Both the position numbers and the translations under genes were made by a program. The notes beneath the pieces are model-generated. The model did not search any database and was not told the origin of the DNA. It worked only from the letters and a program-made list of their open reading frames with translations. From a virus (Duplodnaviria; Caudoviricetes), in the IMG/VR virus record IMGVR_UViG_3300032219_002522, positions 1 to 64,000 of that record: a stretch of DNA of 64,000 nt; one strand, given 5' to 3'. Of the stretch, positions 3,658 to 62,253 are shown in pieces. The first letter of the stretch is position 1; each line of letters opens with the position of its first letter.

Positions 3658-3998
3658 TCGAACTTATCTATTATCCAAAATCCGATAACCATTATAATAG
3701 AAAATACTAATAATGTTATTAAAGAGTCCATTTAACTATATATGATAGCATATACCATATTTATTATCCTGTCAACATTAATGGTAACTTCTGGATTTTT
3801 GTTTTGGATAATATCACTATTTACTGGAGATCTTAAAAGACCAATATTATCACTAATCGCATATATATTTTGGCCATTAAGTCTAGCTTTTATAACCTTT
3901 TATGCTTATTTATTAAATAGATATAATTCTAGGAAATCTATTTTTTAATCATATTATTTTTACTACATTTATAAAAATAAATCTAGATATATAATATC

Positions 3999-4655
3999 AT
4001 GAGATCTATTAAAACATTTGAAAATTTTTCATCTACCCATTATTTATGGAACGATGCTTCTTTTTGGTTAGATGAGCTTCATCCGGAGGAGATATGCTTT
4101 CTATCAATGTATTCTAAAAAAATAGATGATACAAAGTATAAAAAAAATAACGAGATTCCTCTATTTAAAGTTGACCTAGATGCTCCCGAAGAAGTTTCTA
4201 TAGATGATGACGACGACGATGCTTCAGCTAGTTTTGAAATGATCTATATTATACCATCAAAAAATGGGGATGCTACTCTATCTTTTGAAGTATCTGCTTC
4301 AGGATATTTTACACCAGTAAGAACTTATGGATATTATGATCCACCAGAGGGAGGAGATCTAATATTAGATAATATAGATATAGATTCAGTATATTATTTA
4401 GATTTTGAAGAAAATTTTGAAATTGATTTCTCCGCTGGATCATACACTTTTAAATCTGAATTTATAGATAGAAAAATGCTAAATGATCTTATGATTTATG
4501 TAGCAGAAGAAAGAATACCGAGCGAGGAATCTAGAGTAAAAACTAATCTTCCACCAATACCACAGGGTCTATTAGATAAATGTGAAAATATAAGGAAAAA
4601 GAATCCCTCGATAATGAAGGGATATGATATAATTAGCAGATTTAATACCAAATAA
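3999..4655 (+). CDS. Hypothetical protein with MRSIKTFENF motif
   Basis: ORF track; shared N-terminal motif; GATATATA at 3986. Confidence 0.7.
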   Translation: MRSIKTFENFSSTHYLWNDASFWLDELHPEEICFLSMYSKKIDDTKYKKNNEIPLFKVDLDAPEEVSIDDDDDDASASFEMIYIIPSKNGDATLSFEVSASGYFTPVRTYGYYDPPEGGDLILDNIDIDSVYYLDFEENFEIDFSAGSYTFKSEFIDRKMLNDLMIYVAEERIPSEESRVKTNLPPIPQGLLDKCENIRKKNPSIMKGYDIISRFNTK

Positions 4656-5029
4656 ATAGATGGAACAAAAACATATTTTTATCTATAAAGATAAAAAAAA
4701 TATGAGAATTTTATTTACTTTATTTCTATTATCCTACTTTAATGTATCATATACACAAAAGGAGGAGATATCAGTTGTATCTAAAAATAGAGATACACTA
4801 TGGCTAATAAACAACGATGCTGGGAGATCAATAGCTAAATGTTGGGAAATGGGGAATTTACCCCCTGGTGAAAAAATACCAGTTATATTGATAGTGGATG
4901 CGCTGCCTATTAATACAGAAAGTAAAAAAAGAAAATAATAATTTTTGTGTATATTGATGGATTCAATTAAAGATTTTGATGTAGACTTTTAAAATTATTT
5001 TTGATATATATAGTAAATAGATAGAAATA

Positions 5030-5428
5030 ATGAAACATATAAAACTCTTCGAATCGTTTAACAGTATAAATGAATCACAAGGAATTTCTGAAGACTTGGT
5101 ATTTGATTGGCTTCCTTTCGATGATCAAATAAATAATCCAGTAAATTCTAGAATACCCCAGGAAATTAAATATTCAGAACTCCCTCAATTCTGCAATGAA
5201 ATGGGAAAAGAATTTACCGGCGTGGGTCTTTATATAGCTCATGATAAGTTAAGTGGTGGCGGATTTGTTAGATTCATATTAGAAAGTGCCTCACCTATTC
5301 TTTTTAATGTAGCAGTATTTGATAAGGATTTTAAGAAAACATCTGAGAATAAGGGAATTCCTAATGATAAATTTAATTATAAAACATATTTAAGAGGAAC
5401 AGAGATCCTTAACAGATTTAAATTCTAA
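5030..5428 (+). CDS. Hypothetical protein with MKHIKLFESF motif
   Basis: ORF track; GATATATA at 5003. Confidence 0.7.
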   Translation: MKHIKLFESFNSINESQGISEDLVFDWLPFDDQINNPVNSRIPQEIKYSELPQFCNEMGKEFTGVGLYIAHDKLSGGGFVRFILESASPILFNVAVFDKDFKKTSENKGIPNDKFNYKTYLRGTEILNRFKF

Positions 5429-5459
5429 GTTTCAAGAGATCTTTTGTTAATAAAATATT

Positions 5460-5488
5460 AACCGGTTTTATTAAAAGCCGGTTTTTTT
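5460..5488 (+). terminator. Intrinsic terminator
   Basis: AACCGGTTTTA-T-TAAAAGCCGGTT hairpin followed by a T run. Confidence 0.75.
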
Positions 5489-5542
5489 ATTGGTTTTTCG
5501 TTAGATAGGGGGATATATAATCCATAAATAATTAGAAAAAGA

Positions 5543-7285: not shown

Positions 7286-8266
7286 ATGGTAAAAAAGAAA
7301 GGTCCTATATCAATGTTTATAAATAGAAATTATAAGCATTTTAATTCAGCAGCGTTAAAGGATGCGGCAATTGGTTACGAGGATCACATAGATAAGGGTG
7401 GAAAGATGCTAGTTTCTCTTGCTGGTGCAATGAGTACAGCAGAGCTTGGTATTTCATTAGCTGAAATGATCAGAGAAGGCAAGATCGATATTATTTCTTG
7501 CACTGGAGCTAACTTAGAAGAGGATTTAATGAATCTTGTAGCTCATTCACATTACAAAAGAATACCAAATTATAGGGATCTTACACCTGAACAGGAAAGA
7601 GAACTATTGGATCAAGGTCTAAATAGGGTTACTGATACATGTATACCAGAGGAGGAAGCTTTTAGAAGATTGCAGTCTTATATTTATGATCTATGGAAAG
7701 AAGCAGAAGATAAAGGTGAAAGATATTTTCCACATGAATTCATGTATAAACTAATTAATAGCGGAGTTCTTACCCAATATTATGAAATTGATCCCAAGGA
7801 TTCTTGGATGATTGCTGCAGCGGAAAGAAATCTACCGATGGTTGTACCTGGATGGGAGGATTCAACTCTAGGTAATATATTTGCTTCTTACGTTATAAAA
7901 GGAGAGCTTAATCATAGTACAGTAAGAAGTGGAATTGAGTATATGGTTGAACTTAGCAGATGGTACAGAAATAATTGTTCAGGTGAAGGCATAGGTTTCT
8001 TCCAGATAGGAGGTGGAATTGCTGGTGACTTCCCTATATGTGTTGTGCCTATGATGTATCAGGATCTTGAATGGGAGGACGTTCCATTCTGGGCTTATTT
8101 TTGTCAAATATCAGATTCAACTACTTCTTATGGATCGTACTCAGGTGCAGTACCAAATGAAAAGATTACGTGGGGTAAATTGGATGCGAATACACCAAAA
8201 TTTATAGTTGAGTCAGATGCAACTATTGTTGCACCATTAATTTTTTCATGGATATTAAATAAATAG
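7286..8266 (+). CDS. Deoxyhypusine synthase family protein (homospermidine synthase-like)
   Basis: LAGAMSTAELG, IISCTGANLEED, FQIGGGIAGDF, SYSGAVPNEKITWGK, ESDATIVAPL. Confidence 0.93.
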   Translation: MVKKKGPISMFINRNYKHFNSAALKDAAIGYEDHIDKGGKMLVSLAGAMSTAELGISLAEMIREGKIDIISCTGANLEEDLMNLVAHSHYKRIPNYRDLTPEQERELLDQGLNRVTDTCIPEEEAFRRLQSYIYDLWKEAEDKGERYFPHEFMYKLINSGVLTQYYEIDPKDSWMIAAAERNLPMVVPGWEDSTLGNIFASYVIKGELNHSTVRSGIEYMVELSRWYRNNCSGEGIGFFQIGGGIAGDFPICVVPMMYQDLEWEDVPFWAYFCQISDSTTSYGSYSGAVPNEKITWGKLDANTPKFIVESDATIVAPLIFSWILNK

Positions 8267-25930: not shown

Positions 25931-26809
25931 ATGCGGGAATTTAAAATAATTAACCGGATCACAAACACTACAGATAACCTAACAAGGTACTTCAACGAGA
26001 TATCAAAATACGAAACATTAAGTCCAGAAAAAGAAGCTGAATTGGCTACAATGGCTAAGAATGGGGACGCAAAGGCTAAGGACGCAGTTTTAAAATCTAA
26101 TTTAAGATTTGTTGTATCTGTCGCAAAATCTTATGTTTCTACTCATACTTTATTAGAAGATCTTATATCGGAAGGAAACAAAGGTCTAGTTGAAGCTATA
26201 GAGAATTTCGATCCTACTAACGGATTTAAATTTATTAGCTATGCTGTTTGGCATATCAGAAAGAATATATTAATTTATCTTAATAACTACTCTAGAGCTA
26301 TTAGAATTCCAATAAATGTAAATCAAGAGATGCGTAAGTATCATGAGATAGAAGGGGCTTTTATATCTTATAACGGTAGGGAACCTTCAATAGAGGAGAT
26401 GCTTGAAATAATAGAAAATCCCGATTCTGGATTTTCTATTTCAAATAATGCTATAGAAACTATCAAGAACAATCCAATATCTATACCTTTAGAAAATTAC
26501 GGAAGTGATAACGAGGAAAGTATGTCCCCGTTAAATTGGTTACAATCGTCAGATAATACAGACGGAATAATAGTAAACGAGGATCTAAGAAAAATTATCA
26601 TGAGTGTTATTTCTGAATTAAAACCTATGGAAAGAGAAATAACTATTTTAAAGTATGGACTAGGTGAATCTAAAGAGCCTATGAGCTATAAATCCATAGC
26701 AGAAAAATTAGAAAGAACTCCTGAGTGGGCCAGAGGGATTTACAAGAAAGCTGAAATAAGAATGGAATCTATTATTAGAAAGAGAAAAATAAAAGGTCTA
26801 TTTTTTTAA
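25931..26809 (+). CDS. Second, more divergent sigma70-family factor
   Basis: SNLRFVVSVAKSY, DLISEGNKGL.EA..FDPT.GFKFISYAVWHIR; divergent region 4.2 (RTPEWARGI). Confidence 0.9.
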   Translation: MREFKIINRITNTTDNLTRYFNEISKYETLSPEKEAELATMAKNGDAKAKDAVLKSNLRFVVSVAKSYVSTHTLLEDLISEGNKGLVEAIENFDPTNGFKFISYAVWHIRKNILIYLNNYSRAIRIPINVNQEMRKYHEIEGAFISYNGREPSIEEMLEIIENPDSGFSISNNAIETIKNNPISIPLENYGSDNEESMSPLNWLQSSDNTDGIIVNEDLRKIIMSVISELKPMEREITILKYGLGESKEPMSYKSIAEKLERTPEWARGIYKKAEIRMESIIRKRKIKGLFF

Positions 26810-49945: not shown

Positions 49946-50092
49946 ATGGCAAACCTTAAATCTTCAGACCCATCGAAAAAACATCTAGCAAAGGCTAAAA
50001 TAAAAAGACCAGGAATACATTCCAAATGTAAATCTAGTAACAGTAAAAATGCTAAGCATTATAAAAAGGCTTATAAATCTCAGGGTAGATAA
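49946..50092 (+). CDS. Small basic protein (48 aa, not in ORF track)
   Basis: MANLKSSDPSKKHLAKAKIKRPGIHSKCKSSNSKNAKHYKKAYKSQGR*; TAATG coupling to the upstream gene. Confidence 0.6.
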   Translation: MANLKSSDPSKKHLAKAKIKRPGIHSKCKSSNSKNAKHYKKAYKSQGR

Positions 50093-50764
50093 AAAGATAT
50101 ATAATATAAAAAAATGAGACACCTTAGAATATACGAGAACTTCATTGGTGAAGTTGAACCAGAAATAAGACAAGATTCTCCTATGAGTGTAAGTAATTTT
50201 CAAACGGAATCAACTGATTTTATTCCTACAAAAGAGGATGAAGAAGGAGATTATGCAGTAAAATTTATTAATGCAGAGGGAGAAGAAACCATCGTTACAA
50301 TAGGACACTCAATAGATCCTGAATATGTAGGTAAAAAAATGATTAGCTCTATAGAGATGATCCCTGATTCAAGCTCGGACGGAAAAGAATATTCTTTCGT
50401 TGGATATTACGATGAAATACCAGGAACATCTGGAGCATATGAGCTTAAAAAAGTTCTTATAGAGGGATAATGGCTATTAAAATATATTCAGGGTACGACG
50501 AATTTAAATACGAAGAATCTGAATTGTGTGATTGTATAGGACTAGATGATGAATCATCCTATCCAGAAGAATCGGAAGAAGAATCTTATGACATATTTTT
50601 TTATGACTCTAAAAATGTAGATTTTATAGATTCCTCAACATTTTACATTGTAGCAGATTTAGAGGATGAAGAAAACGCCGAAGATATATCAGGATATTTA
50701 GGAAAATTTAAAAGAATTTATATAAATGATTCTCACAAGGTTTTATTTTGCGTAAGTTAAAAAA

Positions 50765-51691
50765 ATGAATAATCTACTATCTTTTAAAGATTTTGTTCTC
50801 TTCGAAGACAAAGAGACTAATACAACAAAAAAACTCTTCGATCTTGATAACAAGATGACTTATAAAACCATTAAGGATTTAAGAACATCTAAAATAGGAG
50901 ACAAAATATACACTTTTTTCTGCGTCGGAAGCGGAATGGAAGCTTATGCAAATTCATTTATAGAAAAAGATAAAGAGAGAGGGGAGGCGCTTCAAAAAAT
51001 TGCAAACAACAAGGATAAAACATTAGTTTTTAGTGAGCAGGGAATATACGTAGTATCTGAGGCGGTATTTAACGGCCTAGTTTCTCTTTCGACAACTATC
51101 TTTACATACGTTCCAGATGGATCTATAACAACAGGAATTAGTATAACAAGGGTTTTTAAGCTTATTAATGTTTACTACAATAATAAAGGAAAAGCACCAT
51201 TCGATAGTATGAAGGAGGATCCGGCAACAATAGCAAAAACAATAATATCGGATCTTTATAAATTGGCTGATTCATCACCTAAGGCATCAGAAGCGGTATC
51301 TGTTCTAACAGTAGCACTTTATAAGTCTTCTCCTTCATCGTTTAAAACAATACCTAATTTCTTAGAAGATTGTGTTTATAATACAGCAAAAGATCTAAAT
51401 CTAAAATCTGTAAAAGTTGGACAGAACATAGAAGATTTCTACAAAGTAGCACAAAATACTCTGGATAATCTTAATATACCGATTCTTAAAAATATAGAAA
51501 TGGGTCTTGATAAAATGTCCGCAATAGTAGAAAGGGGAATAAGAAAGACTAATATATTTTCAACAAAGATAGGTAAAGAAGCTGGAGAGGCTTTAAAAGC
51601 AGCGCAAGAAAGAATAGCTCCTACTGGTAAAGCTATAGCTTCTAAGAGCAAACCTATATGGGATTCGATATTTGGAAAAAAATCGAAATGA
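50765..51691 (+). CDS. Amphipathic-helix protein, paralog of 51720-52874
   Basis: GIYVVSEAVFNGLVSLSTTIF vs GLYVVTEAVATGLISLATSIF and further colinear matches. Confidence 0.7.
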   Translation: MNNLLSFKDFVLFEDKETNTTKKLFDLDNKMTYKTIKDLRTSKIGDKIYTFFCVGSGMEAYANSFIEKDKERGEALQKIANNKDKTLVFSEQGIYVVSEAVFNGLVSLSTTIFTYVPDGSITTGISITRVFKLINVYYNNKGKAPFDSMKEDPATIAKTIISDLYKLADSSPKASEAVSVLTVALYKSSPSSFKTIPNFLEDCVYNTAKDLNLKSVKVGQNIEDFYKVAQNTLDNLNIPILKNIEMGLDKMSAIVERGIRKTNIFSTKIGKEAGEALKAAQERIAPTGKAIASKSKPIWDSIFGKKSK

Positions 51692-51719
51692 TTAATAGAT
51701 ATATATATATAAAAACAAC

Positions 51720-52874
51720 ATGGCAAGAATATTATCATTTAGTGATTTTAACGAACTAAGCGAAGGCTATAACTTTAACGGAAGCGATTATGGTTTTAAG
51801 GATCTTTCTAGTTACGTTGAATTATCTGAATCAGAAATGCTTTCTTTATTTGACAACGAAATCTATGAAGCAGCTCCGAAAGGAAACACTGTACAAGGTG
51901 GATTATTTGATGTTAACGATAAGAACGTTTATAATGCAGTTAAAAACGTAAAAACTGCTGTTATCCAAGGTGCTCAATACACTTTCTTAACAATAGGTCA
52001 AGGTATTAAAGCTTATGCTGATGCACAAGTTAAAGCTGCAAAAGCTACCGGACAAGCTTTATTAAATTTAGCAAAATTTACTGGTAAAGTTGTTATATTT
52101 ACTGCTGCTGGACTTTATGTAGTAACTGAAGCAGTTGCTACTGGATTAATTTCTCTAGCAACATCTATATTTGGATATGCAAAAAAAGGAGCTATTGCAA
52201 TTGGTAGTACTCTTGTTACTGCATTAAAAAATGCTAACGATTACTTTAAAAAATTAGGCAAAGCAGTATTTAATACTATTAAAAATGATGCTTTAGCAGT
52301 TGCTAAAGTTTTTATGACAGGTTTATATAAAGTTGCTAATTTAGCTTCTCAAGCTGCTCAAGCAGTTGCATCTCTAACCGTTGCAGCATATAAGATAGCT
52401 AAAACAGCATTTAAATCTATTACTAACTTTGCAGCAGAGTGTATATACGGAGCAGCTAAAGCAGCTAAGACTGTTGCTATTAAAATAGGAAAAGCGGTTG
52501 GTGATTTTTATAATGCTTCTGTAAGTGTATTTAAATCTGCTAAGGATGCTATTGTAAAAACTATAAAAACTGGATTTAACGCAGTAGCAAATACTGTTAA
52601 AGCTGGTGTGCAAAAAACAGTTAAGGTTGCTGCTAAAATAAAAACGGGAGTTGGAAATGCTCTTAAGGCCGCACAGAATAAAATCGTTAATACCGGAAAA
52701 GAAATACTTTCAGTTGGTAGCGCTATATTTAGGGGTCTTTGGGATCACGAGATTTACCAAGGAACTGACGAAGATATTTTTGAATCCTATGTTATTGTTG
52801 AGGGACAAAGATACTACGTGCCAGTTGATTCATACGATGATTACGATCTAGATATTTTCGGATCACAGTATTAA
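51720..52874 (+). CDS. Ala/Lys-rich amphipathic-helix protein, probably abundant or virion-associated
   Basis: Strong GCT/GCA/GTT codon bias, GATATATA at 51698, MARILSFSDF motif. Confidence 0.7.
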   Translation: MARILSFSDFNELSEGYNFNGSDYGFKDLSSYVELSESEMLSLFDNEIYEAAPKGNTVQGGLFDVNDKNVYNAVKNVKTAVIQGAQYTFLTIGQGIKAYADAQVKAAKATGQALLNLAKFTGKVVIFTAAGLYVVTEAVATGLISLATSIFGYAKKGAIAIGSTLVTALKNANDYFKKLGKAVFNTIKNDALAVAKVFMTGLYKVANLASQAAQAVASLTVAAYKIAKTAFKSITNFAAECIYGAAKAAKTVAIKIGKAVGDFYNASVSVFKSAKDAIVKTIKTGFNAVANTVKAGVQKTVKVAAKIKTGVGNALKAAQNKIVNTGKEILSVGSAIFRGLWDHEIYQGTDEDIFESYVIVEGQRYYVPVDSYDDYDLDIFGSQY

Positions 52875-53352
52875 TAGAAACAAAACCTAAAAACATACCT
52901 ATTAAATGACCCCCGTGGGATATTCCATCGGGGTCATTTAGTGTAACGACCTCTCCTATCAATATAATAGCCAAAATTGGTATAAGGAATTTATTTGATA
53001 ATAGTAATCTTGTTAAAAGAAAATACACCAATCCAGATATACCTATAGAAATTTGAACTCCGAAAAAAGTAAGTATAAAAGTAAAGGTCTGAACGACTAT
53101 AGTTATTAATACCATCTGCTTTATATCATATTTGTTACCACTATGAATAAGTAACAAAAATATTGCTATTATATTAAATAGAAAATGATCTAAAGATTGG
53201 TGAATAAATCCACTAATAAATGGTAAGGATATAGCTAAATCAGCATTTCCCCCAAGTATAAGCATCATAATTAATCCTAGCGGGTATGCTAATACGCATA
53301 CTCCTAATACCTTTAATGTTTCTATAGCAGATCTTTTTAAATTTTCTTTCAT
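52792..53352 (-). CDS. Rhomboid-family intramembrane serine protease
   Basis: FIHQSLDHFLFN, IGISG catalytic Ser motif, ISHGGHLIG catalytic His, several TM helices. Confidence 0.75.
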   Translation of the reverse strand: MKENLKRSAIETLKVLGVCVLAYPLGLIMMLILGGNADLAISLPFISGFIHQSLDHFLFNIIAIFLLLIHSGNKYDIKQMVLITIVVQTFTFILTFFGVQISIGISGLVYFLLTRLLLSNKFLIPILAIILIGEVVTLNDPDGISHGGHLIGMFLGFVSINTVIRKYLDRNHRMNQLARSIFVPQQ

Positions 53353-53438
53353 TTTTTTGTTTTGTAATACAATAGTAGAAAACCCAAAGAAATATAAAAA
53401 AAGATTCTAAATCATTTTTTATATTAAATAAAAAGGTC

Positions 53439-53474
53439 TATATTTGTGAAACAAAACAAAAGGAACGATATATA
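53439..53474 (+). promoter_or_regulatory. Tandem promoters of tRNA array 1 (host-type TATATTTG and phage GATATATA)
   Basis: TATATTTG 53439-53446 matches the Bacteroidota -7 element TAnnTTTG; GATATATA 53467-53474; same layout at 59121-59156. Confidence 0.65.
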
Positions 53475-53482
53475 ACAGATAT

Positions 53483-53557
53483 ATGAAAAACCTAAACAAC
53501 ATATTACCTTTAATATTAAGACCGTCGATAAGACGATCTCTAAAGGTCCTGTGTTAG
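53483..53557 (+). CDS. Leader peptide of tRNA array 1 (MKNLNNILPLILRPSIRRSLKVLC)
   Basis: Codons 7-17 ATA TTA CCT TTA ATA TTA AGA CCG TCG ATA AGA match the downstream tRNAs; 3' end overlaps the antiterminator. Confidence 0.8.
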   Translation: MKNLNNILPLILRPSIRRSLKVLC

Positions 53558-53612
53558 TTTTCAATATATACTAAACTAAAAAACCGGGACCTTTAAAAGC
53601 CCCGGTTTTTTT
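53541..53612 (+). promoter_or_regulatory. Attenuator 1 (antiterminator/terminator pair)
   Basis: TAAAGGTCCTG (53541-51) pairs with CGGGACCTTTA (53585-95), which overlaps the terminator AAAAAACCGGG..CCCGGTTTTTTT (53578-53612). Confidence 0.8.
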
Positions 53613-53642
53613 ATGGTCTTTGAAATATTGAATTATTAAATT

Positions 53643-53729
53643 AGAGAGTTGCCAGAGTCAGGCTTAATGGATCAGTCTTGAAAACTGACGTAGTGAAAGC
53701 TACCAGGGGTTCGAATCCCTCACTCTCTG
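53643..53729 (+). tRNA. tRNA-Ser(TGA)
   Basis: AGAGAGT/ACTCTCT acceptor, TCAGT-CTTGAAA-ACTGA, long variable arm, GTTCGAATC. Confidence 0.93.
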
Positions 53730-53734
53730 CTCAT

Positions 53735-53806
53735 GGGTCTATAGTTAAAGGGATATAACCCTAGCCTTCTAAGCTTGTATTCCTGGTTCGAGTCCAGGTG
53801 GACCTA
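53735..53806 (+). tRNA. tRNA-Arg(TCT)
   Basis: Anticodon loop CTTCTAA; CCTGG-TTCGAGT-CCAGG T arm. Confidence 0.9.
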
Positions 53807-53973
53807 CACAAAGCCCTCTGCCTAGCGCTGGGTATGGATCGAAGATAGAATAGGCCTCTACACCGTAGACAGGTAGGATACCTCGGTATTCTTTAATGAT
53901 ATGCACACTTATTCTCTAAATCGTGGGTTAGCACAGTTTGTATGTTCTGGGGATATTTAAAGACATACAATTT

Positions 53974-54046
53974 CGGGATGTAGATCAGTTGGTAGATCGC
54001 CTGGTTTGGGGCCAGAAGGCCCTAGGTTCGAGTCCTAGTATTCCGA
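53974..54046 (+). tRNA. tRNA-Pro(TGG)
   Basis: CGGGATG/TATTCCG acceptor, loop TTTGGGG, CTAGG-TTCGAGT-CCTAG. Confidence 0.88.
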
Positions 54047-54053
54047 CAGCCAC

Positions 54054-54127
54054 AGAGGCGTAGCTCAATTGGTTAGAGCACATGCCTTATACGCATGCGG
54101 TCACGAGTTCGACTCTCGTCGTCTCTA
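54054..54127 (+). tRNA. tRNA-Ile(TAT)
   Basis: AGAGGCG/CGTCTCT acceptor, CATGC-CTTATAC-GCATG anticodon arm. Confidence 0.88.
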
Positions 54128-54130
54128 CTT

Positions 54131-54204
54131 GGTCCCTTAGCTCAGTAGGTTAGAGCAACTGACTCATAATCAGTAGGTCCACGGTTCGAGCCCGTGAGGG
54201 ACCA
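54131..54204 (+). tRNA. tRNA(CAT), probably Ile2 (lysidine type) rather than Met
   Basis: ACTGA-CTCATAA-TCAGT; GGTCCCT acceptor with C4:G69 and C5:G68 as in bacterial Ile2. Confidence 0.85.
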
Positions 54205-54219
54205 CAAAATTAATAATCT

Positions 54220-54300
54220 GCCTGGGTGGTGAAATTGGTAGACACGTTCGGCTTAAGATCGAATGCGAAATGCGTGAGGGTTCGAGTCCCTCCTCGGGTA
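54220..54300 (+). tRNA. tRNA-Leu(TAA)
   Basis: TTCGG-CTTAAGA-TCGAA, type II variable arm, GAGGG-TTCGAGT-CCCTC. Confidence 0.92.
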
Positions 54301-54305
54301 CATAT

Positions 54306-54408
54306 ATAAGAGTGGCGGAAGCGAGATCATTTATGATCCGATGGAGAGACGCTAGGGTGTCATGCCAGAGAACGAAAATTCATGTTGGTTCAAGTCCAAC
54401 CTCTTGTA
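54306..54408 (+). ncRNA. tRNA-like RNA with a hairpin inserted in the D loop and a degenerate anticodon arm
   Basis: ATAAGAG/CTCTTGT acceptor, TGGCGGAA..GACGC D arm containing GATCAT-TT-ATGATC, perfect GTTGG-TTCAAGT-CCAAC T arm. Confidence 0.6.
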
Positions 54409-54421
54409 CTTTTTAGATTTT

Positions 54422-54973
54422 TTACTTAACCTCTTTAATTCTGAAGTATCCTCGGTGATCGGTTTTACCTGGTTCTACACCATCTTCGAATTTACAATAT
54501 CCAGTAGAATTAAAGAAGTTCCATTCTTCTCTTCTACCTTTACTAAGTTTATCCTGTGGCATTAAAGATCTATTATATTCTTGATTTTCTTGGTTAATTC
54601 TCTTATACATTCCATTATAAAATGTAGATGTGCTAAGTAAATTCGTAGCTTCTTCCATTAATCTTCGATTGATATTATAGTCAAATATAGCCTCATGAAT
54701 AGAAATCTCTGAAATGTCTCTTCTATAGCTAATCCATTGTGATATAACTCCACCATAATTATATGGTGTATAACCTAAATCCCCTACGTAAAAAAGATTA
54801 AAATATGGAGAATTCTCTTTGCTGTGATCGAACAACCTTATGTTAGTATTAAAATGTGGTACAGTTCCACTGAATTCTTTCATTCTATTATAGAATTCAG
54901 GCAGTATCTCTAATGTTATTGATGTCGGATTATTATTTGCATCAAATCCCTCAAATAGCTTAATGTGTTTCAT
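54422..54973 (-). CDS. Hypothetical protein with MKHIKLFEGF motif
   Basis: ORF track; GATATATA on the minus strand at 54979-54986. Confidence 0.7.
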   Translation of the reverse strand: MKHIKLFEGFDANNNPTSITLEILPEFYNRMKEFSGTVPHFNTNIRLFDHSKENSPYFNLFYVGDLGYTPYNYGGVISQWISYRRDISEISIHEAIFDYNINRRLMEEATNLLSTSTFYNGMYKRINQENQEYNRSLMPQDKLSKGRREEWNFFNSTGYCKFEDGVEPGKTDHRGYFRIKEVK

Positions 54974-55019
54974 ATGATTATATATCTAAATATCTAAATA
55001 AATGTGATATATAATGTAT

Positions 55020-56633
55020 ATGAAAAAGTACATAAAACTATTCGAGGAGTTTGTTTTTGAATACCTATCAAAAGCTTCTAAAATAATTAATAATATTAGC
55101 GAATTACCTAAAGTTGGAGAACCTGTAGTCAAACAGGATTTTAGCGAGGACGGTATAGTAGCTATTGATTGGAAGAACTTAGTTTTTATTAGATCCTCAG
55201 ATGAGCTTCCCACTCTTCGAGGTAAAGATATGCTACTTCACACAGGAAAAGCTCTAAAGAGCGTAGGTTTCAATGACTCTTTCGAGAAGTACCTCAAGAA
55301 GAAGTACAATAATGACATCAACGACCCTGAAAATACATGGATAAAGGAAGAACCTCACTACAAGGACTTTGAAACTTTTCGAAAATGGATGATAGATGCT
55401 CATTCCACCAGATGGACAAAACACTTTACGTTGAACCACGTAGTTTCTTCTCACTCTGGTGGAAACTGGACAGGTAACAAGTACATCTACTTGATGCCCG
55501 GAGAATCTATGATCAAGACTAACGGAAAACCTGCTAGTCTCTTTGCTATAGACACTTACTATGACAAGAGCTTGGTAGTGTCTGACGGTACAGTAGTTCT
55601 TTACTTACCTGAAGCAGATGAAGAAGTTAGGGAGTTTGTGGCTAAAACAGCTGAGAACAGAAACCAAATTTATTTCTTGAAGATAAAAGGAGATATTGTC
55701 GATTACGAGCTGAAAGATGCCAACGATGCGATAGAAGCTATGGGATACACTACGTTTAGTGGGGGCTCTCACTACTCAACCGAGTATAATCTTGACAGTG
55801 AGATGAGAGATTTACAAGACAGGGAAGACATCAGAAAAAGTGGACTACACTGGGGTTCTAAATGGTACAATCTTGAGAAGGGACAAACACACTGGGAAGA
55901 TTTTATGAGTCTAGGGAAGATAAAAAGATCCCAGTATAAAAACTTGAACATCAAGAAAGAAGAACAGGAGTACCAAGAACATAGAGGATTCAGCAAAGAT
56001 TACTTGAAAGAGTGCGTGAAATCGTTATCAAAATCTCATTCGGAAGATCCTTTCGACAAAGAAGTTGTGCGCAACTACTTACGATACATGACGATGGTTT
56101 GCAAGATCATAGCTACTCCTAAATTTTCAATGAAACAGTTCGATGAGACTGCAGGTTTCAGTTGGAATAATTCGGATGAACACGCGTTAAGTATGGATTC
56201 ATGGGATCCGAATAAATTAGAATCTGAGTTAGATAGAGATTTTGAGGCTCACCCTGAATACACAAGACCTGAACGATACGGTTACGGAACTCCAGCACAA
56301 AAAGAAGTTATGGCTAAAAGGAGCAATGAATACATAGGGGAGTATTACTATTTCAATAAGTACCTACTGTTCGACATAAAGCAAGCGTTTAAAACTTCAT
56401 GGATAGGAAAGTTCCTCCAGGATAACCGTAAAGAACTAGAAATTTTACAGGATATTATTATTAAAAAGAAAGAAAGCCCAGAATGGGAAGAAGCTGCCGG
56501 TAAGATAGCTGATAGATTAGTAGACAGTCCAGTATTTCCTGATCTTTTAAACATTGGATCATATCTAATAGCAATGAATAGAGGAGCTAAAAAGTACGGA
56601 TATAAGGACGTTTATGACATGCTTGAATTATAA
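55020..56633 (+). CDS. Large hypothetical protein with MKKYIKLFEEF motif
   Basis: ORF track; GATATATA at 55006. Confidence 0.7.
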   Translation: MKKYIKLFEEFVFEYLSKASKIINNISELPKVGEPVVKQDFSEDGIVAIDWKNLVFIRSSDELPTLRGKDMLLHTGKALKSVGFNDSFEKYLKKKYNNDINDPENTWIKEEPHYKDFETFRKWMIDAHSTRWTKHFTLNHVVSSHSGGNWTGNKYIYLMPGESMIKTNGKPASLFAIDTYYDKSLVVSDGTVVLYLPEADEEVREFVAKTAENRNQIYFLKIKGDIVDYELKDANDAIEAMGYTTFSGGSHYSTEYNLDSEMRDLQDREDIRKSGLHWGSKWYNLEKGQTHWEDFMSLGKIKRSQYKNLNIKKEEQEYQEHRGFSKDYLKECVKSLSKSHSEDPFDKEVVRNYLRYMTMVCKIIATPKFSMKQFDETAGFSWNNSDEHALSMDSWDPNKLESELDRDFEAHPEYTRPERYGYGTPAQKEVMAKRSNEYIGEYYYFNKYLLFDIKQAFKTSWIGKFLQDNRKELEILQDIIIKKKESPEWEEAAGKIADRLVDSPVFPDLLNIGSYLIAMNRGAKKYGYKDVYDMLEL

Positions 56634-57088
56634 TTAGAATAATATGATTAAAAAACTATCATATTTCGATATATCCGGAATAATTACAAAGCAATATCCT
56701 GAATATACTCTAATAATAGGTAAAAAATCTGAGGATATATTTAATTATTTTGCCGTAGATGAGTTACATGGACTATATAGAGATAAATGTCATGATAATC
56801 CAAATAACGCTTATATAGCTGGTTTATGTAACGTTTATCCTAATGATCATAATAAATTCTTTATCTTTCTAAATTCGATTAGATTAGATAACGGATACAA
56901 GGACGTCCTTTTAATAATGCACGAGTGTATGCACATGTCTCTAGAGATTCATGGTACAGATTTGACATATAGAGATGGAAATGACATAGAAGAAATTGCT
57001 ATAACTTGGGCAGAGAAGAATTCTGAATCAATTTACGAATTCATTATGTCCAAAGGAATATTATAAAAAATAGGATATATAATGGGTC

Positions 57089-57460
57089 ATGCACGATCAC
57101 ATTAAAATATCCGGACTTGGTATAGAAATATACAAAAATGATATACCAGGGGTAAGATGGTATAAAGCTCAGTCTTTTATTAATGATCTTGGAAATGGAT
57201 GGAGATTGCCTTCATTAAAAGAACTTGCTTTAATAAAAACACTAAGAGATCTTGGTGGCATAGGTAGATTTCCTACCGAATATTCAGATTTTTCTGATTC
57301 GTATTATTGGAGTAATGAGGAAGGCGAGGTTACTAGTATAAGAACACAAGGGAAAGATGGGAAAAGTAACTATGCTTACTTTTTTGATATGTCGGAGGGA
57401 ACTTCTTCACATAATAAAAAATCATACGATCTTAGGGTTAGGTTTGTCAGAGATATATAG
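57089..57460 (+). CDS. DUF1566/Lcl-like domain protein
   Basis: W..A...GWRLPSLKEL...YYWS...AY...RVRFVR. Confidence 0.7.
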   Translation: MHDHIKISGLGIEIYKNDIPGVRWYKAQSFINDLGNGWRLPSLKELALIKTLRDLGGIGRFPTEYSDFSDSYYWSNEEGEVTSIRTQGKDGKSNYAYFFDMSEGTSSHNKKSYDLRVRFVRDI

Positions 57461-57463
57461 AAT

Positions 57464-58315
57464 ATGCCAACAACAAGACCCTTTGCATATAATCCAACAC
57501 AATCAACAATTTCAGGAACTACAAATGTAGGTACATTATGCGTAGGTGTATCTGCTTTAAACTATGGTGCAAATCCAGGAGGACTAACTTGGTGGATGGG
57601 TCCGGACGAGGATAATTCTTATGTAATATCTAAAGATGTACCAACTTCAAACTTTCCTACCCCAGTAGGAAATGTAGGCACTGTACAATTTTGGAGATGC
57701 TCTAATACAGATGAAGCTTTTAGAAGTACAGTACAAATAATAAGCGGTATCACTCAAGCTTCCGCTTTAGCAGCTAGTGATTGGTTAACAACAAATGGAT
57801 ATTGGACTAATCGGAATCCATATCTTGCAGGTTTATATAAAACAACTTACTCCGGATATTTTGCTGATAATGTTAGTTTCTTTGCAACTGCTACTCCTGC
57901 ATCAGTAGGGGGAAATCCAGCTACATCAGTACAAACAACATCTATATTTGAACCCGCTCAAAATGATGGCGAGAATTTTAGTTGTCAATGGCTAGGTTAT
58001 TTTAAACCAACAACTTCTGAAACATATACATTCTACACTTCAAGTGACGACGCTTCGTATGTGTGGATAGGTTCAAATGCACAGACAGGGTTTACAACTA
58101 CAAATTCAACAGTTAATAACGGGGGATTACATGGGACACAAGAACGTTCAGGTTCTATTGCATTAACTGCTGGTACATATTATCAAATAAGAATACAATT
58201 TGGTGAACTAAGTGGAGGTGACGTAATGACTTTTAGTTATTCAACCCCTACTATTACAAAAACTACCAATGTAACAGGACTAGTATTTTATAATCCGTCC
58301 ACTAATGGATTCTAA
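57464..58315 (+). CDS. PA14-domain protein (possible virion adhesin)
   Basis: NFS.QW.GYF.P...TYTFYTSSDDAS.VWI, NNGGLHG..ERSG.I.L.AG.YY.IRI.FGE..GG. Confidence 0.85.
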   Translation: MPTTRPFAYNPTQSTISGTTNVGTLCVGVSALNYGANPGGLTWWMGPDEDNSYVISKDVPTSNFPTPVGNVGTVQFWRCSNTDEAFRSTVQIISGITQASALAASDWLTTNGYWTNRNPYLAGLYKTTYSGYFADNVSFFATATPASVGGNPATSVQTTSIFEPAQNDGENFSCQWLGYFKPTTSETYTFYTSSDDASYVWIGSNAQTGFTTTNSTVNNGGLHGTQERSGSIALTAGTYYQIRIQFGELSGGDVMTFSYSTPTITKTTNVTGLVFYNPSTNGF

Positions 58316-58350
58316 TTCAATAATTAGATATATACAATAAAATCAAAGAA

Positions 58351-58629
58351 ATGAAGCATATTAAAAATTATCAGGCTAAAAATTCTAAAATTAACGAGGG
58401 ATTTTGGGATTCTCTTTTTGGTAGACCCACTGTTGATGATGCTGCTCACGATCAAATGAGAGGTCAAGGATGGAGTCACAGAGGTAAAGATGAAGAAAAC
58501 TACATCATGTTCCAAGGGCAAAAGTTCTATCCCGATCAAATCCAATATGATGATGTTTATTCAACTAAACAAATACCAAGAGTTGAAGGGGGTATGTTAA
58601 TCGTAGCTAATCCAGCTTGGAATTTGTAA
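58351..58629 (+). CDS. Hypothetical protein with MKHIKNY..INE motif
   Basis: ORF track; GATATATA at 58327. Confidence 0.65.
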   Translation: MKHIKNYQAKNSKINEGFWDSLFGRPTVDDAAHDQMRGQGWSHRGKDEENYIMFQGQKFYPDQIQYDDVYSTKQIPRVEGGMLIVANPAWNL

Positions 58630-59120
58630 AAAAAATCAGAAATCTTTTTTTTCTTATTATTTTGATCTCTATATTTGGATCCTAATTAAAAAACTTTTAC
58701 AATGAAATTAAACAAAATGAGCAGGGTTACTATGAAGGTAGCTCACGAGAATCCAGATGCTAGCGTGAACTTCACAGCGGTAGGGATAGGAAAAGATCAA
58801 AGAGAAGCAGCTATCTTCGCATTAGGATCCTTCTTAAATGTTATGAATGGTATTAGTGAGGAAGGAATTTCGGATTACAATGAAGCTTTAGAAATGGTAA
58901 ATGGTCAATATTCGGAAGCTGAAATAGTATCGTTTATGGAAAAACAATTAGAAAGCAATTCAGGTTCTTTCTTTAATGCTTACGAATCTACTGATGTTGA
59001 TTATTCATGGGATGAAGTAGAAGGTGAAGAAGCTGGAGGATTAATCCAAGAAATGGAAATAATCGAAGAGGAATATTAAAAAATATCAAAGAAACATTTT
59101 TTTATTCAATAAAAAGATTG

Positions 59121-59156
59121 TACATTTGTGAAACAATATCAGAAAAGAGATATATA
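59121..59156 (+). promoter_or_regulatory. Tandem promoters of tRNA array 2 (TACATTTG and GATATATA)
   Basis: TACATTTG-TGAAACAA mirrors TATATTTG-TGAAACAA at 53439; GATATATA at 59149-59156. Confidence 0.65.
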
Positions 59157-59167
59157 AACAAGAAACA

Positions 59168-59275
59168 ATGAAAAACTGTAGTAAACATAACATCATTCGC
59201 ATGAACAGTCAGATTAATGGCTGCTATCAAACGGTGGCGTTTTGGGCTAAGGGAAAAGATCCCGATCGAAGCTAA
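59168..59275 (+). CDS. Leader peptide of tRNA array 2 (MKNCSKHNIIRMNSQINGCYQTVAFWAKGKDPDRS)
   Basis: Contains cognate codons for all seven downstream anticodons; last codons and stop overlap the antiterminator. Confidence 0.8.
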   Translation: MKNCSKHNIIRMNSQINGCYQTVAFWAKGKDPDRS

Positions 59276-59336
59276 TACAAGAAATCATATTTAGATATTT
59301 TGAAAAGGCTTTGATTAACTTCAAAGCCTTTTTTTT
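59264..59336 (+). promoter_or_regulatory. Attenuator 2 (antiterminator/terminator pair)
   Basis: GATCGAAGCT (59264-73) pairs with GGCTTTGATT (59307-16), the 5' arm of terminator AAAAGGCTTTGA-TTAACT-TCAAAGCCTTTTTTTT. Confidence 0.78.
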
Positions 59337-59359
59337 GTTCTTTGACATATTGGAAATTG

Positions 59360-59440
59360 GGAGCGGTAGCAAAGTTGGTCAATGCACCGGACTGAAAATC
59401 CGGCCATGTGGGTTCGAAGGTTCGAGTCCTTCTACTTCCA
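59360..59440 (+). tRNA. tRNA-Phe(GAA), chimeric with a foreign 3' end; possibly non-functional
   Basis: CCGGA-CTGAAAA-TCCGG arm; two successive GGTTCGA motifs; poorly paired acceptor GGAGCGG/TACTTCC. Confidence 0.7.
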
Positions 59441-59445
59441 CAAAA

Positions 59446-59518
59446 GGTCCCGTAGTTCAATGGATTAGAATGGAACACTACGGATGTTCTGATCCTGGTT
59501 CGAATCCAGGCGGGGTCT
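59446..59518 (+). tRNA. tRNA-Arg(ACG)
   Basis: GAACA-CTACGGA-TGTTC; CCTGG-TTCGAAT-CCAGG. Confidence 0.9.
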
Positions 59519-59529
59519 CAAACAAATAA

Positions 59530-59603
59530 GGTCGCGTGGCCGAGTGGTTAGGCGCTAGTCTGCAAAACTAGTAACACTGGTTCAATTCCAGTCACGACCT
59601 CCA
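59530..59603 (+). tRNA. tRNA-Cys(GCA)
   Basis: CTAGT-CTGCAAA-ACTAG; U73 discriminator and encoded CCA. Confidence 0.93.
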
Positions 59604-59747
59604 AAAAATAAAATAATAAAGCCTATGGATGAAAAAGTGGTAGTAAAAGGAAGTTTCCCCTCTAGTAAAGAAAACTTAAAAAGAGAAACATTAAAATTTA
59701 AACACGCCGAAAGATTAATAAAAAGAATTAAAAGGCTAATTAACAAA

Positions 59748-59833
59748 GGAAAGTAATCTCAGATGGTGACGGGGCTCGCCTGCTAAGCGAAGCGTACCTT
59801 AATTGGTATTTGGTTCGATTCCAATTCTTTCCG
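59748..59833 (+). tRNA. tRNA-Ser(GCT)
   Basis: TCGC-CTGCTAA-GCGA, long variable arm, G73. Confidence 0.87.
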
Positions 59834-59839
59834 CAATAT

Positions 59840-59913
59840 TGACATATAGCTCAGTTGGTTAGAGCGTTGATCTGATACGTCAAAGGCCGAAGGTTCGAAT
59901 CCTTCTATGTCAC
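59840..59913 (+). tRNA. tRNA-Ile(GAT)
   Basis: TGACATA/TATGTCA acceptor; TTGAT-CTGATAC-GTCAA. Confidence 0.88.
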
Positions 59914-59918
59914 CCCAC

Positions 59919-59991
59919 GCCTTTGTAGCTCAGCTGGTAGAGCGCTTCACTTGTAATGAAGTTGTCGCAGGTTCGATTCCTGTCAAAGGCT
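59919..59991 (+). tRNA. tRNA-Thr(TGT)
   Basis: GCCTTTG/CAAAGGC acceptor; CTTCA-CTTGTAA-TGAAG. Confidence 0.93.
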
Positions 59992-59996
59992 CATAT

Positions 59997-60069
59997 TTTC
60001 CCCTCGTCTAATTGGCGGGACATGTGGTTTTGGACCAGAAGAGTCCAGGTTCGAATCCTTGGAGGAAAA
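59997..60069 (+). tRNA. tRNA-Gln(TTG)
   Basis: Gln-type D arm TCGTCTAATTGGCGGGAC; loop TTTTGGA; several stem mismatches. Confidence 0.8.
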
Positions 60070-60111
60070 CAAAAAGATAAATACAATGTCCAGTATGTAA
60101 AATTTAAGATT

Positions 60112-60603
60112 ATGAAAGTTCTAGTATTAAATAACGACTTTACGCCAGTGAGTGTTACCAATATAGCTCGGGGATTCAAACTTGTATATAAAGGTAAAGC
60201 CGAAGTATTAGAACATGACGAATCTAATCCTATTGTTACAGATCAACAAGTTTATAAAAGACCATCAGTTATAAGGCTTTTAAAGTATGTTGTTCTTCCA
60301 TTTAAGAAGCTAAAACCCACTAGGGAGAACATATTTAAGAGAGACGAATTAAAGTGCTTATATTGTGATGCTACAAAGCAGCTTACAATAGATCACGTAA
60401 TCCCTAGATCTAGAGGAGGTATTAATACATGGGAGAATCTAGCAACTTGCTGTTCTAGATGCAACGGTAAGAAAGGAGATAGAACTCCAGAAGAAGCAGG
60501 AATGAAGATGCGTCACAAACCATTTAAACCTGGATATGGATATTTTATCCGGAATTTTTCTAAAGGAATGGATGTTTGGACATCATATCTTCCAGAATAT
60601 TAA
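60112..60603 (+). CDS. HNH endonuclease (McrA/HNH_5-like) at the end of the tRNA array
   Basis: VLVLN..F.P, PSVIRL, R.NIF.RD...C.YC, LTIDHVIPRSRGG..TWENL..CC..CN..KG.RTP.EA.M; start refined to 60112. Confidence 0.92.
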   Translation: MKVLVLNNDFTPVSVTNIARGFKLVYKGKAEVLEHDESNPIVTDQQVYKRPSVIRLLKYVVLPFKKLKPTRENIFKRDELKCLYCDATKQLTIDHVIPRSRGGINTWENLATCCSRCNGKKGDRTPEEAGMKMRHKPFKPGYGYFIRNFSKGMDVWTSYLPEY

Positions 60604-60606
60604 TAT

Positions 60607-62253
60607 CTATAGAAGAACTCTTTCAGCATATTCCATAACTGCAGGATGTGTGTCTACTAAATGTTTAACAAGTGCAATAGTATTAGGATCCTCAGAATTT
60701 TGTGTTTGTTCTAGGAAAGATCCTAACATTTCCACTCCATCTTTTGTTAGACCTAATATATTTATAACATCGTTTTTGTCGTATTTATTGTCGCTAAGTT
60801 CTTTAAATAGATCAATATCCTCTAAGCTGAAGAATCCTCCATTCTTCTCAGAGTTAAATGCCTTAACAATTTCATTATATGTTATGGAATTGTCTTTTTT
60901 AATTATAGATACTATAATGTTTTTAAAAGCGTCCATCTCTTCTTTGGAATATTCTCCCTCTTCTATAGATCTTTGAACTCCTAAACTTCCTAGAGCATGT
61001 ATTAAAGCTATATTATTTTTACCTGTTTTTTGTTCTATCGATTGAATAATTTTTTTGATTATCAATTCACTTTCAAAATTTTTAGCTATAGATTCCTCTA
61101 TTTCAGGAGAATAGATTCCGTATTTTTTCATGAAATCTACATAATTTTGATTACCGCTTGAAACGCTACTGTTGCTTCTGTTAGCAGAACTAGTAATTCT
61201 TCCGCTAGGATCTATAGTAAGAGATGTTAGGAATTTATTATCAGTCTTAGGAAGATCTAATAGATTTATAGATATTTGTAGTCTTCCAGTTGTATAGGTC
61301 CAGAATGTTGAATCAGTTCTTATACAATATGGTGCATTTGATACTTTACAAACCGCTCTCATACCTTCCGCTGATCTAGCAGATGTTACCACTATCTTTT
61401 TAGCAATATTATAGTATAGTATTTTTATTGATGGAGATATAGACTTTAAAAGCTCTATAAATTCACCTATTCCTGATCCCCACCCAGATACTTTATCTTC
61501 GCAGTCCCTAACAAAATCTTTAAATGCCACGTAAGTATCTGCAAATTCAGGATAAGTCCTTGTGTCTTTATATTTACTTCCATAATTAATTAGCTGCTCC
61601 TCTGCGGTTTCCTCTATATTAGTTTCAGGATCTACAATAGGCTTTAATTTTTTTATGTCGGTTACTGCGTGATATAGTCTATCTAAAAGTTCAGCCCTTT
61701 CAGGATCAGTATTTTTTAGTTTAAGAGATTCTGCAAATTCTCTTCTTATTGGTCCTACGAAATTATCTATAAATTCCTTTATAGGCTTTTGTGCTTCTAC
61801 ATTCTCTAGATCATCCCATAGTTTTTCATAAGCTCTTTCACCCTGTGGTGTTCTTTTTATATAATTATCAATGTTACCAAAAGGAAGAGGAAACGTAGAA
61901 AGCATCGGAGACATTTGCTCATATTTTCTATAAAGGTTCTCTACTGAAAAAGAATTAGGATCGTTATCTCCATTGGACATTGGTAATTTCTCTACTATAC
62001 GAAAATACGTAAAAGGATACACCAAACCTGGTTTTTTAACTTTATTTAAAAAGTAATCTCTTACTTCTATGTAATCTGGATTGCTTAATATTTTTTTCTC
62101 TTCCTCTGGAGTAAATTCTATCTTCTCCATAGGATCTAATTTAAGCCTCCTTTTTTTATCGTCTGCTGCTAATTTTAATAAAAGAGCCTTAGCGGGAGCC
62201 ACATTTTCATTGATTGGATAAAATTGGTCGAATGATTTTAAATTTCTATTCAT
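60607..62253 (-). CDS. Large hypothetical protein, tandem paralog B
   Basis: Colinear with 62266-63933 (INENV..AK.LLLKLA, FTPEEEKKILSNPDY, VKKPGLVYPFTYF, EYAER.LL). Confidence 0.75.
   Translation of the reverse strand: MNRNLKSFDQFYPINENVAPAKALLLKLAADDKKRRLKLDPMEKIEFTPEEEKKILSNPDYIEVRDYFLNKVKKPGLVYPFTYFRIVEKLPMSNGDNDPNSFSVENLYRKYEQMSPMLSTFPLPFGNIDNYIKRTPQGERAYEKLWDDLENVEAQKPIKEFIDNFVGPIRREFAESLKLKNTDPERAELLDRLYHAVTDIKKLKPIVDPETNIEETAEEQLINYGSKYKDTRTYPEFADTYVAFKDFVRDCEDKVSGWGSGIGEFIELLKSISPSIKILYYNIAKKIVVTSARSAEGMRAVCKVSNAPYCIRTDSTFWTYTTGRLQISINLLDLPKTDNKFLTSLTIDPSGRITSSANRSNSSVSSGNQNYVDFMKKYGIYSPEIEESIAKNFESELIIKKIIQSIEQKTGKNNIALIHALGSLGVQRSIEEGEYSKEEMDAFKNIIVSIIKKDNSITYNEIVKAFNSEKNGGFFSLEDIDLFKELSDNKYDKNDVINILGLTKDGVEMLGSFLEQTQNSEDPNTIALVKHLVDTHPAVMEYAERVLL

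Follow-up and report, generated by a model that had tools for sequence, protein, structure and literature searches.

Organization of the locus

The window analysed here, 64,000 nucleotides in length, is the first 64 kb of a single contig of 115,839 bp (~32% G+C) that carries phage-type genes, including those for a tape-measure-like protein, a Dda-type helicase, a thymidylate synthase and a sigma-like protein. On its + strand, a leader ORF of 24 codons plus a TAG stop (53483-53557; ATG at 53483, TAG at 53555-57) is followed by an intrinsic terminator at 53578-53612 (a stem formed by 53578-88 and 53601-11, with a U run to 53612), a boxA-type box at 53614-53630 and, at 53643-54301, the six tRNA genes of array 1: Ser(UGA), Arg(UCU), Pro(UGG), Ile(UAU), a tRNA with the anticodon CAU (Met or Ile2) and Leu(UAA). 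An earlier note on this DNA, made from the letters alone, had described the same succession, and re-analysis recovered each of its parts: the 24-codon ORF, a terminator between that ORF and the tRNAs (53578-53611/12), the boxA-like element behind it and the six tRNAs. The CAU tRNA, which had been read as Ile2, is called Met by ARAGORN.

The leader begins with ATG AAA AAC. Its codons 7 to 17 (53501-53533, + strand) are, as the note had claimed, eleven successive codons that are all readable by the six array-1 tRNAs; ten of the eleven use standard pairing, and CCT needs four-way reading by U34 of tRNA-Pro(UGG). Runs of at least 11 array-1 codons occur three times in the six frames of the 116-kb genome, where 0.015 are expected from triplet frequencies, and the other two are TC-rich repeats of Ser and Pro codons. 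Given these two further long runs in the same genome, the codon run at this single locus is modest evidence, suggestive in itself, and it is the comparative data that carry the weight.

Upstream of the leader, a TAnnTTTG box of the Bacteroidota -7 type (53441-48) lies within a 14-nt block (53441-53454, + strand) that is identical ahead of both tRNA arrays of the window and in 12 IMG/VR loci. TAnnTTTG is also found 20-40 nt ahead of many other leaders, and the block at 53441-54 would act as a promoter. Closer to the leader, 7 nt before its ATG, lies the 9-nt motif GATATATAA (53467-53475, + strand), which is phage-wide: in the form GATATATAA(T) it has 15 copies in the genome, mostly 3-22 nt ahead of gene ATGs (for example at window positions 3986, 5512, 20556, 34652, 50096, 55006 and 57074). 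It is probably a phage promoter or start-associated element, and its placement suggests that it is a promoter of the phage's own, giving transcripts with very short 5' UTRs. The array-2 leader also has a copy just ahead of it, and because the motif mostly stands before ordinary genes, leader ATGs sit where the phage's real genes start. The sigma-like ORF at 25931-26809, which contains sigma-70 regions 1.2 and 2, encodes a protein that might read this motif. A gene for a rhomboid-domain membrane protein (52792-53352, - strand; PF01694, E 1.4e-6) is divergent from the leader promoter region.

On the other side of the terminator, the array-1 box shares its core with the rRNA-operon boxA of Bacteroidota, from which it differs at a few positions; it is common to array 2, where the box (59336-52) is identical over 17 nt to the boxA in the 16S-23S spacer of these operons. 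This 17-mer occurs overwhelmingly in Bacteroidota genomes (Pedobacter, Mucilaginibacter, Chitinophaga, Bacteroidales, Cryomorphaceae), and in the four complete operons that were checked (Pedobacter, Flavihumibacter, Niabella and a Cryomorphaceae genome) it sits between the spacer tRNAs and the 23S rRNA. A T run before the 17-mer together with tRNAs after it was seen in 0 of 122 matches in bacterial genomes, so that the combination of terminator, box and array looks phage-specific in this sample. That the box might be a second promoter was also considered and was ruled out by its rRNA-operon boxA core.

Alternative RNA structures at the leader end

The last codons of the leader overlie the 5' strand of an antiterminator (region 2, 53541-53551, + strand), which pairs over 11 bp with region 3 (53585-53595, + strand), that is, with the terminator 5' arm and part of its loop. 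This pairing, which includes one G-U pair, and the stem that extends it had both been noticed at first reading and they hold up on folding; the extension is the inner stem-loop of the antiterminator (53554-53579), in which 53554-60 pairs with 53573-79. Antiterminator and terminator are mutually exclusive because both use 53585-88. The antiterminator hairpin is the more stable of the two, with -19.1 kcal/mol when folded alone (z -5.9) against -14.0 kcal/mol (z -3.5) for the terminator. The minimum free energy fold of the whole leader includes one more hairpin, not mentioned in the first reading, in which a tentative region 1 (53506-53512, + strand) pairs with 53541-47, the 5' portion of region 2 (-11.1 kcal/mol, z -2.1). 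No covariation of this 1:2 hairpin is seen in the leader-1 family.

A second unit and the close relatives

The window contains a second unit of the same composition (promoter block, leader, antiterminator, terminator and boxA) at 59121-59352 on the + strand. Its leader has 35 codons (59168-59275) and also begins with ATG AAA AAC, its antiterminator is formed by the last codons of this leader, its terminator lies at 59302-59334 directly before the box, and the array that follows extends over 59359-60070. An exact search of IMG/VR with the promoter block returned 12 loci on 9 contigs.

The same six array-1 tRNAs are present in the same order in all relatives. The array-1 leader occurs among them in seven variants, and the ORF is kept in all seven; the variants are mostly amino-acid-changing, yet the altered codons are still array-readable ones for Ile, Leu and Ser, and in some variants a 1-nt deletion shifts the stop to where region 2 begins. 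Among the relatives the inner stem occurs in three sequence versions, all of which pair; these versions, which are out of register in the MAFFT alignment, were read directly from the sequences. In L003, matching 1-nt deletions are found in region 2 and in the terminator-loop part of region 3. The core of leader 1 (AGACCG...GACGATC) is invariant and folds as a small hairpin, a degree of nucleotide conservation that exceeds the need of the codon-set model alone.

In the relatives there are three arrays, and every one is preceded by a leader, a terminator and a box. This genome does not have the third of these arrays (Glu, Asp, Met, Leu-UAG), and in the relatives leader 3 shows only a moderate match to this small array. 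Array 2 has 7 tRNAs here versus 15-16 in the relatives L001, L007, L011 and L161, and leader 2 is unchanged despite this tRNA loss. Tracking of the array by the leader is thus imperfect, and leader 2 would now sense tRNAs that are no longer encoded.

Several elements in and around the two arrays escaped annotation or vary among the relatives. Between tRNA-Arg(UCU) and tRNA-Pro(UGG) of array 1 lies a 166-nt insert (53808-53973) with no Rfam match and no obvious ORF, perhaps a small element that is either mobile or a structured RNA; in L003 and L013 the site measures only ~5 nt, and other relatives share the insert. After tRNA-Leu, at 54302-54405, there is a tRNA-like element with paired ends and a T-arm-like stem-loop at ~54384-54400, uncalled by ARAGORN and Rfam and kept in L005 (in two copies) and in L013. 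In array 2, positions 59747-59833 hold a probable tRNA-Ser(GCU) that ARAGORN missed and that Rfam scores as tRNA-Sec-like at a sub-threshold 38 bits; relatives have Ser(gct) at the same place.

Besides the 17-mer of the array-2 box, three features, namely the TAnnTTTG boxes before many leaders, the A-rich leaders devoid of Shine-Dalgarno sequences and a weak protein similarity to crAss-like and Flavobacterium phages, suggest a Bacteroidota-type host for this uncultured phage. In particular, the best tblastn matches of the helicase, at ~30% identity, are to crAss-like and Flavobacterium phages. A megablast of 50000-58000 against GenBank phages gave no match, and a cultured relative with the leader design was not found by tblastn of the helicase or by blastn of the array, of boxA plus the first tRNAs or of a 33-nt boxA query, these three blastn queries returning generic tRNA similarity and chance short matches only. 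Elsewhere in the window, the ORF at 7286-8266 contains a deoxyhypusine synthase domain with a strong score (PF01916, E 4.5e-41); such a translation-factor-modifying enzyme is unusual in phage.

A wider class of sites across phages

Searched across IMG/VR, a pattern consisting of a T run and then the array-2 form of the box matched at least 119 stretches, at least 96 of them distinct and at least 64 with a tRNA within 150 nt. Among the IMG/VR matches listed are 89 sites of the terminator, boxA and tRNA-array type. An ATG ORF of at least 10 codons precedes the box at 87 of these 89 sites and a terminator was found at 88 of them, the leader at pooled loci being taken as the longest ATG ORF whose end falls between 80 nt upstream and 12 nt downstream of the point where the terminator stem begins. 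The 87 ORFs end 16-42 nt before the stem (mode ~21) and correspond to 70 different peptides, which fall into 34 families; Met-Lys opens 43 of these peptides, and most leaders begin with ATG AAA in A-rich surroundings. No family representative has an ORF shorter than 22 codons, and ORFs of at least 25 codons are present in 88% of the representatives versus 14% of shuffled upstream regions.

One further site (L243, ~367.1-367.4 kb) is found in GenBank LR756501.1, a 735-kb uncultured phage, with three tRNA-Arg and two tRNA-Thr genes downstream. Its leader is rich in Arg, Thr and Gly codons and shows alternating Gly and Thr codons and two Arg codons. LR756501.1 is a published genome, and the leader-terminator-boxA design is unannotated in it. 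A match in a Prevotella Lak phage was rejected: the box is present, but it has neither a terminator nor a neighbouring tRNA.

A looser pattern (T run plus boxA) gave mostly chance matches and one useful locus, L033, which comes from a related phage and in which ~1 kb of DNA (4480-5500), rich in paired-looking segments and lacking a long ORF, lies between two tRNA blocks and may be a large structured RNA. At L002 (3190-3870) and at L130, L134, L194, L213 and L229, a protein gene with its own promoter is lodged between boxA and the first tRNA; these inserts measure 600-840 nt where the first tRNA was located, and leader, terminator and box are intact.

Covariation of the antiterminator pairing

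Pairing between the leader end and the terminator was compared across 33 families with a duplex test in which the last 8 codons plus the stop were set against the terminator 5' arm plus loop. The mean duplex energy is -15.9 kcal/mol with the own terminator versus -8.0 kcal/mol with those of other loci (z -16; 0 of 20,000 permutations), and the own arm is the best of the 33 partners in 24 of the 33 families. Control segments are flat: neither the 30 nt just upstream nor the spacer has an own-locus preference. For the 1:2 hairpin, the own-versus-cross test across families was not significant (z -1.6). The conserved core therefore looks like a two-state switch, antiterminator versus terminator, with the ribosome as the presumed selector; and since the families give no support for a conserved 1:2 hairpin, read-through is probably the default when the leader is not translated.

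Leader codons and the downstream array

Whether leader codons follow array content in relatives was a check proposed in the earlier note, and the outcome is positive across 33 families (one representative per family, leaders of at most 55 codons). A leader's own array can read a fraction of 0.39-0.54 of the leader codons, varying with the wobble rule and with the array definition, and this drops to 0.26-0.37 when arrays are permuted among leaders (z 8.2-9.5, a value inflated to some degree, as are the other z-scores, by leader families that are not fully independent phylogenetically; 0 of 20,000 permutations reach the observed fraction). From the codon usage of this phage 0.23-0.36 would be expected, and 30-32 of the 33 leaders are higher.

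The match has a sharp positional boundary. Array-readable codons make up 0.55-0.73 of codons 8-27 upstream of the stop, versus 0.36, whereas the last 7 codons show no enrichment (0.18-0.48 versus 0.35). Such a boundary fits a model that requires region 2 to stay clear of the stalled ribosome. Coverage of the arrays is likewise high, with 95% of array tRNA species having at least one cognate sensor codon versus 60% in permuted sets (z 6.5). The choice of codon family for Leu, Arg, Ser and Ile also follows the anticodon present, in 85 of 125 cases versus 66 expected (z 3.7); in particular, CGN is used for Arg in 7 of the 8 cases in which the array carries Arg(ACG), and CGN accounts for ~10% of Arg codons in the genome.

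The correspondence is also seen within single phages and within families. Within one phage, in relatives with the full 16-tRNA array, 93-100% of the leader-2 sensor codons are read by array 2 and 4% by the other arrays. Within families, variant codons are still array-readable in 75 of 87 cases versus 58.6 expected (p 5e-5), and 43 of the 53 amino-acid-changing variants stay inside the array-readable set. It is decodability by the array, and not the peptide sequence, that is conserved in the families. A general codon bias of the phage was tried as the source of the codon match and was ruled out by the within-phage contrasts, by the absence of the match in the last 7 codons and by the permutation test.

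A proposed attenuation mechanism and its alternatives

The anatomy of these sites, their conservation, the match of codons to arrays and the covariation of the antiterminator were all established computationally. The earlier note's reading of the locus as a codon-sensing attenuator gains support from this comparative evidence, that is, from the codon match, its positional boundary, the choice of isoacceptors and the antiterminator covariation. Judging from sequence, we consider it likely that this phage tRNA operon is gated by transcription attenuation through a leader peptide, with the ribosome as mediator and with stalling leading to read-through. Transcription would begin at the promoter block, near 53441-75, and ribosomes would then translate the leader of 24 codons. 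When translation is smooth, the ribosome at the stop would cover region 2, the terminator at 53578-53612 would fold and the transcript would end before the tRNAs. When cognate charged tRNAs are scarce, the ribosome would stall on the sensor codons at 53501-33 and leave region 2 free to pair with 53585-95 (together with the inner stem), and RNA polymerase would read through; it is from the geometry of the leader that we infer this polarity. Beyond the terminator, the polymerase would meet the boxA at 53614-30, where host Nus antitermination factors may load. The position of boxA after the attenuator would be a sensible one, since the decision would precede the assembly of a termination-resistant complex. 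The six tRNAs for exactly those sensor codons would then be made, closing a negative feedback loop on tRNA supply.

Several other explanations could be proposed for the same anatomy. The attenuator could be real and yet report general translation capacity or amino-acid starvation, that is, overall charged-tRNA supply or ribosome availability after host shut-off, with no closed feedback loop. Large leaders that sample up to 16 amino acids do resemble a general translation probe, and read-through as the untranslated default, with no conserved 1:2 hairpin found, would agree with one; but a general probe would need neither leaders that split their codons in step with the arrays within one phage (93-100% versus 4%) nor an isoacceptor choice that follows the anticodons, and we regard this explanation as unlikely. 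Reversed polarity receives far less credence from us. In such a feed-forward loop, efficient leader translation would cause read-through, so that tRNA sufficiency boosts tRNA synthesis; with the stop 16-42 nt upstream of the stem, ribosome release there could free region 2 before the terminator 3' arm is made. Against this, a ribosome at the stop covers region 2, and the exclusion of sensor codons from the last 7 is expected only if region 2 has to stay free when a ribosome stalls.

Two further explanations would leave the ORF without a sensing role. Factor-dependent antitermination of the N/nut, Q or LoaP type, in which a protein of phage or host origin binds region 2 or the conserved hairpin and times tRNA expression while the ORF is incidental, would account for a terminator that lies between a promoter and structural RNA genes with a boxA adjoining, and it could draw on the high nucleotide conservation of the leader-1 core and on the sigma-like protein of the phage. 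If the ORF were incidental, however, one would not expect it to be open at 87 of the 89 sites, to contain codons that match the array up to a sharp positional boundary, or to confine its amino-acid changes to the array-readable codon set; moreover, boxA lies downstream of the terminator, unlike nut sites, which lie upstream. This makes such a factor very improbable as the explanation. The least probable account that we considered is that ORF and terminator form an independent small-protein or sRNA unit, the tRNAs being transcribed from a separate promoter downstream of the terminator and the alternative pairing being due to chance. The terminator is strong, and a -35-like hexamer, TTGA(A/C)A, lies in the box, as this account would have it; but the stretch ahead of the first tRNA showed no -10 element to go with it, and the box has the rRNA-operon boxA core (17 nt exact at array 2), which is not that of a promoter. 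Nor would an independent unit explain an antiterminator that covaries over 33 families, a tight spacing between stop and terminator, or peptides that are not conserved as proteins.

If ribosome-mediated attenuation does gate these arrays, its biological role is a separate matter, on which we are more hesitant. It is possible, though we would not call it probable, that the leaders serve as tRNA-pool surveillance, each tRNA block being kept off while the host tRNAs that read its codons work and turned on when they are depleted, as an inducible counter-defence. Triggers could be, for example, host anticodon nucleases or tRNA decay during infection; the switch would be thrown within one round of leader translation, and the specificity of the counter-defence would be encoded codon by codon in the leader. 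The role of phage tRNAs has been debated for decades, the proposals including codon compensation, a substitute for host tRNAs that have been degraded, and evasion of defences that cleave tRNAs (for example PMC10264068 and PMC11464382). If attenuation is at work here, these phages would measure decoding speed and express their tRNAs on demand, and the debate would become testable by asking which tRNA shortage opens which switch. It would also account for the conserved small ORFs, terminators and boxA copies beside phage tRNA arrays, add structural RNA genes, Bacteroidota and phages to the range of classical attenuation, and provide synthetic biology with compact, programmable sensors that are codon-specific.

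Comparison with known systems

Leader-peptide attenuation is itself well known, and what would be new here is the control of phage tRNA arrays by a leader peptide; a search of open-access papers and of bioRxiv full text returned no description of leader-peptide control of tRNA genes. The boxA has its counterpart in rRNA operons, where boxA/Nus antitermination likewise involves a boxA core at the head of an untranslated structural-RNA operon. The phage boxes differ in serving tRNA arrays and in being placed just after a regulated intrinsic terminator, and NusB/NusE would be the factors that act there.

T-box riboswitches bind uncharged tRNA directly through a specifier codon, with no ribosome needed. 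They resemble the phage leaders in sensing the status of specific tRNAs, in switching between a terminator and an antiterminator and in standing ahead of translation-related genes; unlike a T-box, the phage sensor would be a translated ORF, and no Rfam match to the T-box covariance model was obtained in 53000-61000 at E values up to 1. Closer in its logic is the pheM attenuator of the E. coli pheST operon, which encodes phenylalanyl-tRNA synthetase and in which Phe codons sense charged-tRNA supply. There too, what leader-peptide attenuation adjusts to that supply is a part of the translation apparatus, but pheM governs the synthetase of one amino acid, whereas the phage design would govern tRNA genes, for many amino acids together.

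The nearest architectural likeness is to the multivalent leader attenuators of enterobacteria, such as the thr leader (Thr and Ile codons) and that of ilvGMEDA (Ile, Leu and Val), alongside trpL, hisL and pheL. The phage sites combine the four structural traits of leader-peptide attenuators: an ORF, an intrinsic terminator, a maskable antiterminator that shares a strand with it, and codons related to the regulated genes. As in the thr and ilv systems, a short leader with regulatory codons, translated in those systems and predicted to be so here, precedes a terminator and an antiterminator that share a strand, ribosome position would decide between the two, and one leader would sense several amino acids. 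Rfam scores the locus (53490-53615) against Thr_leader (RF00506) at 28 bits (E 0.05), below the gathering score of 55, so that it is not a member of this family and the likeness is architectural only. There are nevertheless a number of key differences: (i), the phage design lacks support for a conserved 1:2 pause hairpin, unlike the classical attenuator model; (ii), it is set in phages of Bacteroidota instead of enterobacteria; (iii), in its leaders each of up to 16-19 tRNAs is represented by a single codon or by a few, whereas the leaders of amino-acid operons use runs of a single codon; and (iv), it would regulate tRNAs and not biosynthetic enzymes, so that its output would directly replenish the very species that the leader senses.
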